This document shows positions 1 to 6,600 of a stretch of 64,000 nucleotides of DNA, one piece after another. How positions within the stretch are numbered: position 1 is the stretch's first letter; every line of letters begins with the position of its first letter. The translations under genes and the position numbers were made by a program. Source of the stretch: an uncultured Chloroflexia bacterium. GTDB lineage: Bacteria > Chloroflexota > Limnocylindria > Limnocylindrales > CSP1-4. A model generated the notes under the pieces. It had not been told where the DNA came from and searched no databases. It saw nothing but the letters and a program-made list of their open reading frames with translations. The stretch spans positions 275,654-339,653 of the forward strand of contig CAVTHS010000014.1 in NCBI GenBank assembly GCA_963734535.1. The letters run 5' to 3'.

Positions 1-1817
1 ACCATGTTCGAGATGCCCATCGCGAACGCCAGGCCAAGCGCGAGCGGCAGGTTGTTGGTCAGGCCCAGGCCGACCACCGCGAGGCCGTACACGGCGTAGC
101 CGCCGATCACCATCCGGCCCTTCGCGATCCGCGAACCCAGCAGGCCGATCACGAACCCGCCGAGCAGGTTGCCGACGCCGATCGCCGTCTCGATGAAGGC
201 GTAGGCGGCGGTCCAGTCGAGCGACCCGAGTCGCAGGACCACCTTCGCGTAGAGCGGCGTGAGCGCGATCGTCGCGCCGACCGTCAGCTGCCCCGCGACC
301 GCCTGCAGCGTGTTGGCGAAGAGGACGGGCTCGCGACGAAGGAATCGCCAGCCGGCGGACAGGTCGGCGCGGATCCCGGCCAGCCCGGGGACGGGGTCGG
401 CCGACCCAGCCGAGCGGACCACCGGCGGGATCACCACCACCATCACCAGGAGGGCCGACGCGACATACGACACGGAGTCGAGCCAGAACGCCAGCGGCAG
501 CGCGCTCCCGAGGAACGCCACGAACAGCCCCGCGAAGGGATAGCCGATGACGTCGGCCAGGGTCTCGTTGAGCCATGTCGCGGCGTTCGCCGACACGAGC
601 TCATCCTCGTGCACGACCCTCGGCAGGACGGCCGTCCGGGCCGGCCGGAAGAAGATCGAGACGGTCGTCAGGAGGAAGACCAGCGGGTAGGCCAGCACGA
701 CGCTCACGCCGACGCCCGCGGGAATGAGCACGACGATCCCCGCGCGAATGAGGTCGCTCGCGATCAGGACGTGCTTCTGGTTCCAGCGGTCGACCAGGAC
801 GCCCGCGAGCGGTCCGAAGAGGAGGTTCGGCAGCGTCGCCGCAACGAACGTCAGGGCGCCCGCGATCGCCGAGTTCGTGGTCCCGTAGACAAGCGCCGCC
901 AGCGCCACCTGGTGGATCCGGTCGCCGAAGAGGCTGATCACCTGCCCCGTCTGCAGCGCGGAGAAGGATCCGTTGACTGCGAGCCGAACGTACGGGTGAT
1001 GGCGCGCCCGGATCGCGACCGTCCGGAGGACGCCGGGCAGGAGCGGTGCCGTGACGCCGCCCGACGACATCGGCGCCGGTGTTGCCAGCCCCGCGCCCGA
1101 GCCGCCCAGGATCATCGGCCGCTCCAGCGCAGCGATGCCAACCAGGCTCGCCGCGAGGCCGGTCCCTGCGCGCACGCCGCCCGTCTGCTCGGAGCCGGGC
1201 GATCCGGCCAGGACCACCGGCTGGCTCGGGTCGGCGCTTCGGAGCGTGCGGCCGTCCGACCCGACCTCGTCCGCGTGACGCACCATGCCCGCGAACAGGA
1301 AGAACCCGAGTCCGACGTCGAGGATCACGTCGCCGATCGAGAGAACATTGCGCAGGAACGGCAGCGGAACCGGGATCACGTCGCCCAGCGGGCCCGCCGA
1401 CCACATGAAGGCGGCGTCCAGGCTCGCCGGCAGGATCACGTGGATGGGCGAGAGGACGTCCGCCCGGCCGAACCCGGCCGCGACGAGGCTCGGTTCCCAG
1501 ATTGGCATGAAGCCGCCGTTCACCAGGATCGCCGTGGCGTTGAGCCCGATCCCGACGAGCGCCAGGCTCATGCCCGGCCTCGCCCGGTTCGCCCACAGCC
1601 CGATGGCAAGGACGCCATAGGCGGCGGCAAGAAGCGGAACCCGCAGCGTCTCGGCGATGGCGACGTCCCGGCCCAGCGCCGCCTCGGTACCCAGGCGAAG
1701 GGCGAGCGCGCCGAAGATCACGAGCGGCCAGCGGAGGCGGATCGAGATGAGGTTGTCGATGCGGCCGCCGACCGCGAACCCCGCGACCAGCCCGATGATC
1801 AGCCCCGCGATCAGCAC
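1..1817 (-). CDS. DUF5317-like membrane domain fused to an MFS transporter (3' end beyond window edge)
   Basis: Manual translation from GTG at 1817: MLIAGLIIGLVAGFAVGGRIDNLISIRLRW...LNATAILVNGGFMP...LGDVIPVP...SIGDVI, a linker, then MFS motifs GQVISLFGDRIHQVAL and GPLAGVLVDRWNQK. The frame at position 3 matches the start frame. Start overlaps the HD-GYP stop (GTGCTGA). Confidence 0.8.
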   Translation of the reverse strand, partial: MLIAGLIIGLVAGFAVGGRIDNLISIRLRWPLVIFGALALRLGTEAALGRDVAIAETLRVPLLAAAYGVLAIGLWANRARPGMSLALVGIGLNATAILVNGGFMPIWEPSLVAAGFGRADVLSPIHVILPASLDAAFMWSAGPLGDVIPVPLPFLRNVLSIGDVILDVGLGFFLFAGMVRHADEVGSDGRTLRSADPSQPVVLAGSPGSEQTGGVRAGTGLAASLVGIAALERPMILGGSGAGLATPAPMSSGGVTAPLLPGVLRTVAIRARHHPYVRLAVNGSFSALQTGQVISLFGDRIHQVALAALVYGTTNSAIAGALTFVAATLPNLLFGPLAGVLVDRWNQKHVLIASDLIRAGIVVLIPAGVGVSVVLAYPLVFLLTTVSIFFRPARTAVLPRVVHEDELVSANAATWLNETLADVIGYPFAGLFVAFLGSALPLAFWLDSVSYVASALLVMVVVIPPVVRSAGSADPVPGLAGIRADLSAGWRFLRREPVLFANTLQAVAGQLTVGATIALTPLYAKVVLRLGSLDWTAAYAFIETAIGVGNLLGGFVIGLLGSRIAKGRMVIGGYAVYGLAVVGLGLTNNLPLALGLAFAMGISNM

Positions 1818-3232
1818 GGCTGGGCGGGGGTCAGGAAGCGTCCGTGGGTGGGCCGCCCGGCGCAGCCGGCGGAATCATCCGCGCCGCGGCCTGGGCGAGG
1901 AGCGGGACAGGTCGCGACTCGGTCGGGCGCCCGGGCGTCTGCCACGTCCTTGGCCCACGACGTGCGCACGAACGCGTCGACCATCACCGGATCGAACTGG
2001 ACGCCCGCGTACTTGCGCAGCTCCGCGAGTGCCTGCTCGCGCGACAACGGCCGCATCCGATACGGGCGCGCCGACGTCATCGCCTCGAACGCGTCGGCCA
2101 CGTGGAGCACGCGCGCCAGCTTGGGGATCTCGTCGCCCATGAGCCGATCCGGGTACCCGGAGCCGTTGTACCACTCGTGGTGGTGCCGGATGATCGGCAG
2201 CTCCGGGGCCAGCTTCCCGACGTGGGCAATGATGTTGGCCCCGATCACCGGGTGCCGGTTCATGAGCGCCCGCTCGTCCCGCGTCAGCTTGTCCTGCTTG
2301 AGCAGCACGCTGTCCGGCACCCCGATCTTGCCGATGTCGTGCAGCAGCCCGCCCCACTCGAGGGCCTGGATCTCGTCGTCCTTCAACCGCATCACGTGCC
2401 CCATGTCCACCGAGATCAGCTGCACGCGCTCGCTGTGACCGGACGTGAAGGTATCCCTCGCATCGACTGCCTGCGCGAGTGCCCCGATGGTCTGCGTGAA
2501 CATCTCCTGCACTTCGACGACTTGACGAAGTGCGACTCGCATGATGTAGATGGGCAGGACGCGAAGAAGAGAGTTGCCCACCATCCGACCTCGAGAGGCG
2601 ATAGATCTGCGTCATCAGCCAAGCCAGGGGAGCGAGTGCAACCCTGTCGCGAAGAACGTCGGTCGATCCCCGAGCAAGACCGTTCTGGTCGATTGCTGCG
2701 TTCGAAGGGCGACCGTTATTGATGTGAAGCTCACGTTGAGCGCAAAGAACACAGACGCAGCCCGGCGAGCGTCGATACGAAGTCGCCGGCCGGAGCGGTT
2801 GATCCCGACGCCCGAGTTCCGTCAGGACGATCTGACGCCCGAACGTCCCGCTGCGATCGCAGGAACAACAAGTCCCGCGTGGTTGGCAAGGGTTCCGTAC
2901 CACGGGACCCGACCCGAGTCTCCCGATACTCCTTGTCCCGATGGCGCGACGATCGCAGCCTGCGGCCTGGTCCTCCCAGACTCATCGCGGCGACGATTGG
3001 CGCGATCGACGTGTTGATGAGCGTAGCCCCGCGCCATCGGACTGGCAGAGCCGAGGCTAGGAGGGTCAGCCCCGTCCAGAAGACGATCCCGGCGAGGACG
3101 TCGATTGTCTCGGAGCCAAACAGGTCCAGCCGAATCTGCTATCTGACAGGAATCACGACGACTCGTGACGACTAGCACAAGGTGCGCCGACCGTCACGAG
3201 CTCGCAATGTAGATGCTGAGGCTCTTAGGCAT
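1811..3232 (-). CDS. HD-GYP cyclic-dinucleotide phosphodiesterase with N-terminal multi-TM sensor region (5' part frameshifted)
   Basis: ORF 1811-2584 has LLHDIGK and HHEWYNGSGYP. Upstream hydrophobic fragments lie in shifting frames back to ATG 3232 (MPKSLSIYIA), preceded by GAAGGGA. Confidence 0.8.
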
Positions 3233-3310
3233 CCGATCCCTTCAGGCGACCGTCGGCTGTCCTTGGACTGTAGACGTACCCGGACGAGCCGGAAGGTGAG
3301 ACAGAAGTAC

Positions 3311-3400
3311 CTAGAACCCCTTCAGTGATGCTCCCCCAGCAATAACGGCCGCGCCGATAGGCCGACGGTACCGCGAGGAGGGCGCAGTCCGAGTCTTCAT
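3311..3400 (-). CDS. 29-aa putative signalling peptide precursor MKTRTAPSSRYRRPIGAAVIAGGASLKGF
   Basis: Manual translation ATG..TAG. Basic N-terminus, hydrophobic/Gly-Ala C-half, aromatic C-terminus. The middle may be distorted by compensating indels. Confidence 0.65.
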   Translation of the reverse strand: MKTRTAPSSRYRRPIGAAVIAGGASLKGF

Positions 3401-3430
3401 CACTGGAGACCTAGCTCCCGTCCCCTGCCG

Positions 3431-3463
3431 TCAGAAGCCCTTGGAACCGAACTCGGGACCCAT
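3431..3463 (-). CDS. 10-aa micro-ORF MGPEFGSKGF
   Basis: ATG..TGA with GGAGG (3471-3475) 7 nt upstream; same KGF C-terminus as the adjacent peptide. Confidence 0.55.
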   Translation of the reverse strand: MGPEFGSKGF

Positions 3464-3614
3464 CGTGTGCCCTCCAATGGGTTTCCGTGCCCCCGCGAAA
3501 TCACGAAAACCGACCTAACAGATTGGTCGGTCGGTTGCACTAGTCGCTCCACCTCCCCCCTAAGTGCCCATTTCGGGAGGAGGTATCAGCGCGTCCGCTT
3601 GTTCACTTTGCTTC

Positions 3615-3632
3615 CTAGTACCGCGGTACTAG
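3615..3632. promoter_or_regulatory. perfect 18-bp palindrome CTAGTACCGCGGTACTAG, candidate operator
   Basis: Self-complementary; intergenic between the regulator 3' end and the peptide ORFs. Confidence 0.4.
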
Positions 3633-3691
3633 TCGGCGAACCGGACTTTAGGCTGCTGCGCGAGCAACGGTCAATACCGAACCCTCCCTAT

Positions 3692-6600
3692 CTAGCCCAA
3701 GAGATCCTCAAGGTGAGGCGGATCAAGGCCGAGGTCCCGCTGACCCAGTGAGTAGTGTCCGTACTGTTCGGCCGCGGCAGCGTAGGCGCCGACCAAGGTA
3801 TAGAGCCGTATCACGGTCTTCTCGACCTCGTCGAGTTGCGGGTCAATCTCAATGGCCCGCTGAGCGAGGCGCATCGCACGATCGATCTGACCAGTGTCTG
3901 CATCGTGCGTCGACCGCGCGCTCCACGATCTCGAGGTATCTCGCGTGCATCGATGCTCTCGGATCGGGGCCGCCCATTCTTCGTAGGTGAAGTCGAGGGC
4001 GAATCGTCCCGAGTAGATCTGTGACACGCGATCGGCCTGGGCCGGGGTCGCGAGAGCGCCGATCGACGCTGCAATACGTCGATACTCATGGCTTCTGCTC
4101 GTAACTAGGTCGGAGTCTAGCCACAGCACATCGGGGTCGTGATGCAGATACCCGGGGCTCAAGTCCTCCGACGTAGTCGGGCTCGAATACGCGACGGAGG
4201 AAGTAGACGGTCTGGTGCAGTGAGTTGGCGGCCTGCTCCGGATCCTGATCCGGCCACAGCGCGTCAAGTACCTGGTCCCGCGTTGCCGACATCTTTGGCT
4301 GAGCTAACAGGAAGCAAAGGAGCGCAAGAGCCTTCCGGCGGATCGTCGTCCCCGGTATCTCCATCGAACCAACCCAGATAACCAATCCGGCCGAGATCGT
4401 CGACATAGACCAAGTCGGCAACTCGACGGGCGAGCGACTTACCGAAGTCTGGATGACGGAGTTGTCCCTTGGACTCCTTCGAAGCCAGCCGGAGTAGGCG
4501 AACGTCCTCTTTGGTCCCGATTACCTCCAGGAGGCGGGCGGCTTGCCATCGCTCTCGGCCTCCTGGAGCTGCAACGAGAATGCGAATTGGCGATTCGCCA
4601 GCGACGCGGGCGTGACTCAGCCTCTGCAGCGGACGACGTCGATCGCAGCGTCGGACAGGTCGGCGATCCTCCGGAGCACTGCCTCTGCCCGAACGCTCAA
4701 GAGCGCGCGATCGCGGAGCCCGATGGCGCTGACGATCGCCGACGCTTCGTCCGGCGTGGCAGATAGTCCACGCAACAGCGATGCGTCGATAAGGCGACCC
4801 AGCGCGCTGCTTGCCGCCGGGCTAACGTTTCGAGCGCTAGTCGAGACGCGGGATCAACCGTTCCGAATGCGAGAACTCGCGAATTCAGTGCGCCAGCAGA
4901 CGCTGGACGTGGAAGGCGGGGTATCCCGTCAGGACTCCGCAGGCATTCGGCGGATATGTGAGCCCGCGTCGCCTCGCCCACCTCACCAGGTCTTCCAGCC
5001 GCGAGAGCTGTCTCCGGTGAGAAGCTGGAAGCACTCCAGGGAGGCATCTGGAGCACCCAGAAGGTCGGCCTCCGCAGCAGTCTGAGAGGCGCGCGTCCGG
5101 ATCGTCGTAGGCTCCAATGATCTCGGCGCCCTCGACGAGGCTCTCAAATCGCGTCCCGGCTCTCGCTGCCTCGAGCGAGTGTCACGTCCAGCTTCGCCTC
5201 CGCCTCGACCCAATCGCCGTCGTGGGCAAGGGCCCAAGCCTACAGTGTCTGCACCGACGATATTTCCGTTCCCGCGGAGGAGCGGCTAAGCGCATCCACG
5301 GCGCCAGCCGCCCGCGTCGCGGGTTGCGTGCACGTCGCCTCGAGCACGCAACATCCACGCGGCATTCAAGAGCGAGATGCCTTGGTAGTGCCAGTAGCCC
5401 CGCCGCTCGAATCGGGTTGCGAGGTCCGCGATAGGCATGGATCGACACCGCCGAGGTCTCCGTCGACGGGAATGATTCGAGCCAAGTCATGGCATCCGCG
5501 AGGGTGGCGATCGCTCGCCGGTTCTTCCGACAGAGATCGCGCCGCCCAGCGAACGGCGCGTTCGTAGGTCGCCTACCCCATAAGACGCGTTCATCATTGA
5601 CCCCATCGCGATAGCAACGGTCATGCGACCGGTCGCTTCCTCCGACGACACGATCGATGGCACCTGCGGCAGCCGCGGCTGCTCCGGCCGGATCACCGGC
5701 ACGGAGTCGTCCTGATGCCACTATCACGTCGTGCCAGGCGCCGAGGGTGGCGGGGTCGAGATGGGAGGCGAGCTGCTCGGCGTCCTTGTAGGCGCCGGAG
5801 CCGAGGATGACGGGGACTGCCGCCGAGAGGACTCGGACGGCGTCGTCGGCCAGGTCGGCGGCGGCGAAGTGGTACGCCGCGACCGACCACGAGGCAGGCT
5901 CCGCGGCGCGCGCGATGCGGGCGTGGATCTGGCGGACCGCGATCGCCCCGACGGCGTCGTGCAGCCGGCCCTCCAGGAACGTCCGGACGAGCGGGTGGAA
6001 GAGGCGTCCGGCCTGCCCGGTTCGGCCGCGTCGCGACAGGAGACCCGCACCCTCGGCGGCGTCGAGGAAGCCGCGAGCGGCCTCCGGGGTGACCTCGGCG
6101 GCCGCGGACGCGAGCTCCGGCGTGACGACGGCCAGCAGGCAGCTCCGCTCGACGAAATCCTGGGCGGCACGTGGCATGCGCCCGACGACCTCCTCGGCAA
6201 GGTAGTCGTGCAGGTCGCCCTGCCGACCGGACAGGCCGCGGATGACGGTCCGAACCTCGTCGCGCGGCCGCCCGCGGACCACGGACTCGACGAGCCGCAG
6301 CGTGGCCGCCCATCCCTCGGTGGTGCGGGCGAGGTCGTCGAGGAGGTCGCGCTCGAGCGGGTCGTGGTAGGTGTCCCGGAAGAGGCGCTCCGTCTCGTCG
6401 CGGTCGAATCGCAGGTCGTCGGTGCCGATCTCGGCCGCTTCGCCGATTGCGCGGAGGCGGGCGAGGGGGAGCGTTGGCCGCGTCCGCGAGGCGATGACGA
6501 CCGCCAGCCGGTCGGGACCGCGGACCACGAGCTCACGGACGATCTCGCGGATCTCCGGGACGTCGTCCACCTGCTGGTAGTCGTCGAGGACCAGCGCCGT

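Follow-up and report, generated by a model that had tools for sequence, protein, structure and literature searches.

We analysed a stretch of 64,000 nucleotides (nt), hereafter the window, from an uncultured Chloroflexia bacterium (assembly GCA_963734535.1, contig CAVTHS010000014.1, positions 275,654 to 339,653 of the forward strand), and describe here two micro open reading frames (ORFs) that lie on its minus strand ahead of an HD-GYP gene. ORF1 (3463..3431) comprises 10 codons and a stop, from an ATG at 3463 to a TGA at 3433..3431, encodes MGPEFGSKGF and is preceded by a Shine-Dalgarno (SD) sequence, GGAGG (3475..3471), exactly 7 nt before the ATG. ORF2 (3400..3311) comprises 29 codons and a stop, from an ATG at 3400 to a TAG at 3313..3311, and reads MKTRTAPSSRYRRPIGAAVIAGGASLKGF, with AGGASLKGF as its C-terminus; an in-frame GTG at 3403 gives a 30-codon form. 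The two ORFs are in the same frame, with 30 nt (3430..3401) between the stop of ORF1 and the ATG of ORF2, and they close on AAG GGC TTC TGA and AAG GGG TTC TAG, respectively. An earlier reading of this DNA (the original prediction) had described both micro-ORFs, the 7-nt SD spacing, the 30-nt gap and the end codons, all of which are exact on the minus strand. The ORFs belong to a module with the order SARP gene, promoter, cyclic di-GMP (c-di-GMP)-II riboswitch, ORF1, ORF2, MASE9-like HD-GYP gene and DUF5317::MFS_3 gene, and the micro-ORF pair occurs in the same order in more than 30 genera of two families. Genomes, loci, genera and families carry the labels G, L, g and f below, G000 being the source genome; peptide translations and counts were taken from the alignments by hand, and a few slips are possible.

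The riboswitch, which is absent from the original prediction, lies at 3605..3520 of the minus strand and was identified with the Rfam covariance model RF01786 (61.4 bits against a gathering score of 53.5, E-value 1.5e-12). The match covers the full model (positions 1-84 of 84) above the gathering score, which places the aptamer in the family; the outer P1 helix of the model is unpaired in the window aptamer, whose end lies 57 nt before ORF1. Orthologous aptamers score 54-64 bits in seven loci of other genera, six of them from six genera of family f4 and one from genus g7, and 30-48 bits in three additional loci. Behind the aptamer, a consensus fold of 14 sequences (RNAalifold) contains two hairpins (3480..3534, minus strand), namely H1, formed by CCGACC..GGTCGG and followed by TTTT, and H2, formed by GGTTTTCGTG..CACGGAAACC, whose pairs are maintained through compensatory changes. 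The consensus fold allows all helices, including the hairpin with its four U residues, to coexist and leaves the SD and ORF1 unpaired; a conserved alternative structure overlapping or following an ORF, as expected of an attenuator-type leader, was not found in the folds calculated. RNA depth, which peaks over the aptamer, was not used as a termination signal because the aptamer is the most conserved part of the leader, where contigs from many species pile up. Contigs from RNA libraries of relatives cover both ORFs, for example a 238-nt contig over 3282-3487.

Two further observations concern the aptamer and its platform. First, the f4 leaders (L109-L114) have an expression platform unlike that of family f1: in six of six, a CAGAAG-AGGGCAC-CTTCTG hairpin carries the SD in its loop and runs up to the ATG. 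Second, two weaker c-di-GMP-II-like sites are present in contig 3 of the source genome (L070 1501-1586 and L071 1501-1585, both minus strand), at 41.2 and 38.1 bits and hence under the gathering score. Each has the SD and ATG of an ordinary signal-peptide or membrane protein gene within about 20 nt and no ORF1 or other micro-ORF; the sites may represent a divergent aptamer variant with translational control.

The 1.1-kb stretch that runs from the SARP gene through the leader to the HD-GYP gene is matched in 18 of the genus's 24 other genomes, with identities of 67-78%. When 17 genomes of the genus are aligned, the promoter hexamers, a palindrome, the aptamer, the two hairpins, GGAGGG and ATGG are invariant or nearly so, with GGAGGG unchanged in 17/17. 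ORF1 has 10 codons in 16 of these 17 genomes (the exception, G014, has a 1-nt insertion), its peptides including MGPEFGSKGF, MAPESGSKGF, MAPAYGIKGW, MVPVYGLKGF and MGPESSTKAC with TGA or TAG as stop. Outside the genus, 9 of 11 sequences from six other genera and 15 of 20 from 18 further genera also show 10 codons (three of the remaining five have 6-9 codons and two are disturbed by insertions), and all six f4 genera have an ORF1 of 8-9 codons (MARQSVKGW, MSREAYKGW and similar). Between families, ORF1 differs in length by whole codons. It starts with ATG in the source genus and in f4 and with GTG elsewhere; TAG, TGA and TAA all occur as its stop, in an unchanged position; and CCC, CCG, CCA and CCT all serve as the codon for Pro3. 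The resulting consensus is M-x-P-x4-K-[G, sometimes A/P/S]-[W, sometimes F]-stop, in which the Lys at -3 and the aromatic last residue are conserved. With the 7-nt SD-to-start spacing found in 113 of 198 loci, the conservation of ORF1 and its ribosome-binding site, on which the original prediction had staked its case, extends far beyond the source genome through the genus, family and f4 alignments. Exceptions are the indels in G014, G050, G062, G066 and G278 and the short forms of 6-9 codons. In two loci, L036 (G050) and L062 (G062), the insertion creates a 19-codon ORF whose TGA overlaps the ATG of ORF2 (ATGA). By the distance of its ribosome-binding site, the interchange of its starts and stops, its frame, its length and its synonymous changes, ORF1 behaves as a coding micro-ORF, and we consider it likely, with good confidence, that it is coding.

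An explanation that dispenses with translation would be that the conservation of ORF1 is that of RNA belonging to the expression platform of the riboswitch, the like ends of the two peptides being due to chance. ORF1 does lie within about 60 nt of the aptamer, and AAG GGC TGG is strongly conserved as nucleotides, Trp having a single codon. However, the frame is preserved even though ATG and GTG starts, three stops and four Pro codons replace one another, and the SD and ORF1 are, as stated above, free of consensus pairs. ORF1 is also retained in genus g17, where both loci available carry ORF1 (MDANRSTKAW, MSSDQGVKAW) and ORF2 and neither has a riboswitch detectable at E<=0.01; in one of them (L105) the SARP stop is only 140 nt from ORF1. 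The chance that both peptides would end in a basic residue, Gly and an aromatic residue, allowing for other alignments, is 0.01-0.02 by our own rough estimate, which was not computed. We regard an untranslated ORF1 as very unlikely. In the same genus, L104 (G055) has at about 85-135 (minus strand) a perfect 12-bp hairpin, GTATCGAGGCGC..GCGCCTCGATAC, directly before the start codon of the HD-GYP gene.

ORF2 is conserved in a different manner, with a fixed length and a nearly fixed tail. No frame-breaking gap occurs in 14 of the 17 genus genomes, and the ten that were translated in full all have 29 codons, the remaining four having been read at their ends. The same 29 codons are found in the 10 fully read of 11 sequences from six other genera (G099 was read in its tail) and in 14 of 20 from 18 more genera, where one sequence has 30 codons and five, mostly from few-contig assemblies, have a single-base indel; in all six f4 genera ORF2 has 31-32 codons. 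The f4 sequences end in AGGASVKGW, AGGAGVRGW, AGGASLRLW, AAGAGLRGL, AGGASFKGW and AGGASLKGW, and the overall consensus is A-G-G-A-S-Φ-[K/R]-G-[F, sometimes W or L]-stop. Within this tail every codon of A-G-G-A-S varies at its third base, the Ser is AGC or AGT in two f4 genera and TCN elsewhere, and the basic residue is written with seven codons (AAG, AAA, AGG, AGA, CGA, CGG and CGC). In total, single-base indels of ORF2 were seen in G000, G014, G021, G178, G158, G130, G066, G080 and G278, mostly few-contig assemblies. Two loci of different genera, L049 (G178) and L052 (G158), each have one extra base right after codon 7 (CGA), which could be coincident assembly errors or real. Frame, length and the dominance of synonymous changes in the tail mark ORF2 as a coding micro-ORF, and we hold it very likely to be coding.

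Searched against 1.84 billion proteins, a profile of ORF2 returned 127 cluster representatives (E<=0.001), of which most are exactly 29 amino acids (aa) long or are longer calls that end with the 29-mer; the six clusters that were looked up are named 'hypothetical protein' or nameless. Against Pfam and NCBIfam, ORF2 matched no family above cutoff, the best matches being at chance level (DUF4148, E-value 0.1; TIGR02811, E-value 0.19). The peptide resembles a signal peptide, with a basic N-terminus (MKxRLxR), a variable hydrophobic core and small residues at -3 and -1: in every sequence inspected the residue at -1 before GGAS is A, S, T or G and that at -3 is A, V or I. By eye, it has the n-region, the h-region of 10-15 residues and the small -3/-1 residues of a Sec signal peptide or signal anchor. 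The original prediction had suspected that the true middle of the 29-mer is hydrophobic, and relatives bear this out: the peptide reads MKTRLLRLLAVASTIGAAVLAGGASLKGF in G002 and the same with I for L in G134.

In the source genome itself two indels 18 nt apart that offset each other (-1/+1, near 3387/3382 and 3359) scramble the middle of ORF2; since one base is missing and one is extra, about 10 residues are out of frame while both ends are in frame. Contigs of close relatives from public runs show compensating differences at 3387, 3382 and 3359, that is, the in-frame form. The neighbouring genes are affected too. Compared with the intact 502-aa protein of G002 (L002:1955-3463), the N-terminal 235 residues of the HD-GYP protein carry at least eight frame changes and an in-frame TAG, the HD domain is intact from 2584 onward, and the SARP gene is split between frames. 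These breaks cluster at 2585-5182; the flanking HD domain, DUF5317::MFS, STAND ATPase and DnaB are in frame, with GC content at third codon positions (GC3) above 0.9. The breaks are either decay or assembly error. For the G000 indels, the best public run contains at most 19% of the words sampled from the source sequence, and the reads behind the genome were thus not located among the public runs. Two other readings of this region were set aside. The lower GC content of 2600-5600 is no sign of decay, because the same dip occurs in G002 and is thus a property of the locus, and the five TGA codons met on reading through the HD-GYP gene are off-frame stops after frameshifts, not a different genetic code.

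How widely the arrangement is distributed was assessed by DNA, domain and pattern searches. Leader DNA matches were found in 169 of 301 genomes and 34 of 49 genera of the family (a tally that includes the unpublished G121 and G176), and the N-terminal domain of the HD-GYP protein in 130/137 genomes of f1, 86/153 of f4, 60/92 of f3 and 0/16 of the small-genome family f2 (eight unpublished genomes included). We then formulated a strict ORF1 pattern (GGAGG, 7 nt, RTG, 6 codons, AAR NNN TKS, stop) and a separate pattern for the ORF2 tail. Each matches once in the window and in none of 100 shuffles, a test that is circular because the patterns were derived from the data. An independent set of 80 species-representative loci was therefore fetched through the HD-GYP protein or domain alone; it contains the ORF1 pattern in 44/80 and the ORF2 pattern in 56/80, once each and at the expected distance upstream of the gene, with one off-target match across all 198 loci. 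Most of these loci bear the title 'uncultured Chloroflexia bacterium', 'Candidatus Limnocylindrales bacterium' or 'Chloroflexota bacterium'. In family f3, one locus carries a 25-mer resembling ORF2, MRRVLAAIAALAALVLGGGAGINGL; this locus has no riboswitch and, by eye, no ORF1-like ORF, and three other f3 loci gave no match in the pattern search. ORF2 thus travels with the HD-GYP gene and ORF1 with ORF2, and the patterns in g17, in f3 and at L070/L071 indicate that neither ORF is simply part of the riboswitch. The persistence of this layout throughout a large group of uncultured soil bacteria makes it probable that the micro-ORFs encode real small proteins.

The likeness of the two C-termini, to which the original prediction had drawn attention as a shared KGF, holds as a basic-Gly-aromatic end in general, whereas the exact KGF/KGF pair is confined to G000, G002, G010, G007 and close kin (L120, L121), hence to part of the source genus, and to G296 and G230, two genomes of genus g26. 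A KGW/KGW pair is found in G461, G337, G485, L132, L136 and L145, and in several loci the last five residues of the two peptides are identical with different codons (SLKGF in G230; SIKGF in G296; SVKGW in G461, L132 and L136). Selection at the protein level had been proposed from the synonymous KGF codons of the window; tails that differ by synonymous codons occur in many species, which fits such selection. The expectation that homologous loci would hold paired ORFs with co-varying ends came true in part: the pairs recur, but strict co-variation had to be dropped, a KGW end in ORF1 facing a [K/R]GF end in ORF2 in the usual case. The shared end is a class likeness (basic, small, aromatic, stop) that persists over two families without strict co-variation, judging from the alignments.

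Alternatively, both ORFs could act purely in cis, as leader ORFs. Ribosomes would then translate each ORF and pause at [K/R]-G-aromatic-stop, the pausing would set downstream translation or protection of the riboswitch-gated transcript, and the released peptides would be functionless. Short arrest leaders such as those of erm and cat have a similar pattern, with a conserved end and a free middle. In keeping with this, ORF1 follows immediately on the riboswitch hairpins and has a strong SD, its conservation is limited to Pro3 and the C-terminal residues, the middle being free, the distance from its stop to the start of ORF2 is short (5-35 nt), and the frame-shifted variants of G050 and G062 end on the ORF2 ATG. 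On the other hand, RNAalifold pairs no bases (0 pairs, 26 sequences) in the spacer that separates ORF2 from the HD-GYP gene, and the ORF1/ORF2 spacer varies in length and sequence in the genus and wider alignments. A stalling motif, moreover, needs no basic N-terminus, hydrophobic core or fixed 29 codons, and the 29-mer is too short to leave the ribosome tunnel before termination and so cannot sense secretion. Lastly, the tail residue differs from lineage to lineage (F, W, G or P) and the ribosome does not, a pattern that in our view is more in line with a co-evolving protein partner. We rate purely cis-acting leader ORFs as unlikely, although they come nearest to a serious competitor.

What the partner might be is suggested by the neighbouring genes. 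The catalytic part of the HD-GYP gene is an intact 257-aa ORF at 1811..2584 (minus strand), identified by Pfam HD_5 at about 3.2e-38 to 3.4e-38, and is preceded at 2585..3232 (minus strand) by an N-terminal MASE9-like membrane domain that is frame-broken here. The MASE9 match is weak (E-value 0.062 in G002, below cutoff). Homologues number more than 1000, and PF20972 is precomputed on some of them. Next comes a DUF5317::MFS_3 fusion gene (3..1817, minus strand; Pfam) that extends past the window edge. The fusion was confirmed in the window, in G100 (family f1, genus g22) and in G461 (family f4), in each as a single ORF of 640-710 aa directly after the HD-GYP gene (window 3-1817, minus strand; L199 70-2208; L201 1506-3440); DUF5317 follows the HD-GYP gene in G100 and G190, and a DUF5317-like ORF is seen by eye in G002. 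The literature searched contains no paper on DUF5317. On the far side of the riboswitch lies a SARP-type regulator gene (Trans_reg_C and BTAD by Pfam; 3692..4421, minus strand), here in two overlapping frames and in all three genera checked (G002, G100, G190) intact at the same place; farther upstream, beside the SARP pieces, the Pfam scan of the window found a STAND-like ATPase and DnaB. A microcin-C-like reading of a tiny ORF with an MFS gene was rejected, as the neighbours scanned include no adenylyltransferase-like gene. By eye, the catalytic part (window 1811-2584 against L002 2690-3463) is about 95% identical to G002 in DNA over most of its length, unlike the overall alignment covering the upstream region, at about 77%; the locus may be a mosaic with recombination at the HD-GYP domain boundary.

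The promoter scan placed a promoter-like site, TTGACC, 18 nt and TAAAGT, at 3645..3674 (minus strand), and its hexamers, GTATTGACC and TAnAGT, are invariant or near-invariant in three alignments (A1, A3 and A5). Just after the -10 element is the palindrome CTAGTAC-N4-GTACTAG (3615..3632, minus strand), with GTAC cores invariant in 17, 14 and 21 sequences and arms paired by RNAalifold, which could serve as an operator or form a stem-loop at the 5' end. GTAC motifs are found at several conserved positions of the minus strand (3615-3632, 3305-3310 and about 3275-3279): one touches or overlaps the ORF2 stop (TAGGTAC or TAGTAC) in most f1 genera and another precedes the SD of the HD-GYP gene. Such recurrence could reflect a protein operator or RNA pairing; long-range pairing of the GTAC behind the ORF2 stop with the CGTAC before the HD-GYP SD was rejected on the unpaired consensus of that spacer. 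The same spacer holds, at 3267..3272 (minus strand), a TAnAGT motif (TACAGT here) that is conserved across f1 and f4 and is similar to the -10 element of the main promoter (TAnAGTC). An internal promoter may have its -10 here, in which case riboswitch gating would apply mainly to the two micro-ORFs.

We postulate that the micro-ORFs are real small-protein genes, the first cistrons of a conserved module, whose peptides act in trans on membrane proteins, a reading that we prefer and to which, taken whole, we give an even chance. The riboswitch would gate transcription or translation into the peptides and the HD-GYP enzyme, and their synthesis would thereby be tied to the c-di-GMP level. The 29-mer would be a Sec signal peptide-like or single-pass membrane anchor with its N-terminus inside, following the positive-inside rule. 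Its tail, A-G-G-A-S-Φ-[K/R]-G-[F/W], would be the working part, placed on the outer side of the membrane, either anchored or released by signal peptidase, with the intramembrane MASE9 sensor of the phosphodiesterase, DUF5317::MFS or both as its target. For MASE9, ligand binding inside the membrane has been proposed (bioRxiv 10.1101/2021.11.05.467447). ORF1 would supply a leaderless peptide of 6-10 residues with the same type of tail, a cytoplasmic or MFS-exported twin of the ORF2 tail that acts in trans on the same partner, and its translation would also keep ribosomes on the leader. The conservation, coding signatures, gene order and riboswitch on which this scheme builds are those seen in the alignments, and from them a trans action of the peptides on the membrane module is probable; its topology, partner and direction of regulation are the ones that we would predict.

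A more far-reaching scheme would make the pair a peptide-signal system. Here ORF2 would be a Sec pre-peptide that is cleaved behind its small -3/-1 residues and so releases an octapeptide such as GGASLKGF, ORF1 would be exported by DUF5317::MFS_3, and both peptides would be sensed from outside by MASE9, feeding cell density or confinement into c-di-GMP turnover. Precursors of 21-23 aa that resemble bare signal peptides are found among the pheromones of enterococci and streptococci. The n-, h- and c-regions of ORF2 with small -1/-3 residues before GGAS throughout, the MFS_3 transporter of 'secretion effector' type fused to DUF5317 in the operon at 3/3 loci checked, and the adjacent SARP regulator with its TPR-like BTAD domain would suit such a system. 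Set against these, cleavage and export are hypothetical, the neighbourhood yielded no peptidase, import system or receptor, the MFS protein scores 24 bits against a cutoff of 575 with the ryptide exporter model, and the literature searched holds no precedent; we find a peptide-signal system improbable. Scarcely better placed is its closed form, an autocrine or quorum loop gated by riboswitch and SARP regulator, made of a 29-aa Sec pre-peptide and a leaderless 10-mer, of which the 10-mer would be handled by DUF5317::MFS, and with their shared C-terminal epitope read by the intramembrane MASE9 of the HD-GYP phosphodiesterase. If true, it would amount to a self-contained loop in uncultured soil Chloroflexota and provide a ligand for MASE9.

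Several points weigh against the action of the peptides in trans that we favour. Translation, insertion, cleavage and binding are all inferred, and the peptides were read by hand from the alignments. By the positive-inside rule the ORF2 tail would be outside and ORF1 inside, so that a shared partner needs an extra assumption. The likeness of the tails is limited to the class level: in 33 further loci the usual pair is x-x-K-G-W in ORF1 with S-L-[K/R]-G-F in ORF2, and in genera g7, g34 and g10 ORF2 ends in HLL, RIL or GLF, with K/R-x-W retained in ORF1. Some genera have an ORF1 reduced to 6-9 codons, and no counterpart of it is seen by eye beside the 25-mer of the f3 locus; in the source genome, frame breaks affect the HD-GYP N-terminus, the SARP gene and the middle of ORF2. 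Not among these points is a complex prediction for the MASE9-like domain (residues 1-245) with ORF2, which speaks neither for binding nor against it (scores of 0.16 and 0.12, against a mark of 0.32).

Among known systems, the closest is the CD1980.2 family of Clostridioides difficile, 58-aa membrane proteins encoded behind class I c-di-GMP riboswitches (PMC13724677). As described there, these too are unannotated or 'hypothetical' small ORFs with their own ribosome-binding site directly 3' of a c-di-GMP riboswitch, with a membrane-associated product and riboswitch-controlled expression, both of which are predicted from sequence in our case. The same description has them as multicopy stand-alone genes with an effect on sporulation, and reports no homologues outside C. 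difficile. By that description the present locus is set apart by a class II riboswitch, two ORFs (10 and 29 codons), an HD-GYP operon and its occurrence in Chloroflexota. Beyond the C. difficile work, the literature searched contains no micro-ORFs in c-di-GMP riboswitch leaders and nothing on c-di-GMP in Limnocylindria.

Other comparisons cover one part of the module each. The mgtL ORF in the Mg2+-sensing mgtA leader of Salmonella couples translation speed to alternative RNA hairpins; like ORF1 it is a very short ORF with few conserved codons in a riboswitch-controlled 5' leader, but here conserved alternative structure around or after the ORFs is lacking from the folds, and ORF1 is retained in g17, where no riboswitch is detectable. 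KdpF, MgrB and AcrZ are, like ORF2, hydrophobic single-helix peptides of about 30 aa encoded beside a membrane target, presumed in our case. ORF2 differs in being most conserved in its short polar tail and less so in its helix, its partner being a predicted one, and those systems have nothing equivalent to the second, leaderless peptide that shares its tail. The precursors of SHP/Rgg and of iCF10/iAD1 are bare signal-peptide-like peptides of 21-30 aa with the active part in their C-terminal 7-8 residues, a short precursor shape that ORF2 shares. They work with an RRNPP-type receptor, an Eep-type protease and Opp import, none of which was identified at the present locus, where genes for a SARP regulator, an HD-GYP enzyme and an MFS fusion flank the ORFs.

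In catalogues, a riboswitch is usually credited to whichever annotated gene comes first. At the present locus, two conserved genes, which annotation has missed or called 'hypothetical', fit into the approximately 290 nt that separate the aptamer from the HD-GYP gene, and the conserved 10-codon gene is among the shortest with comparative coding evidence this clear. If the peptides act on the membrane module, they would be the first candidate ligand or partner for the MASE9 sensor and for DUF5317 and, in a phylum for which the literature searched holds no such description, would link small proteins to c-di-GMP turnover.

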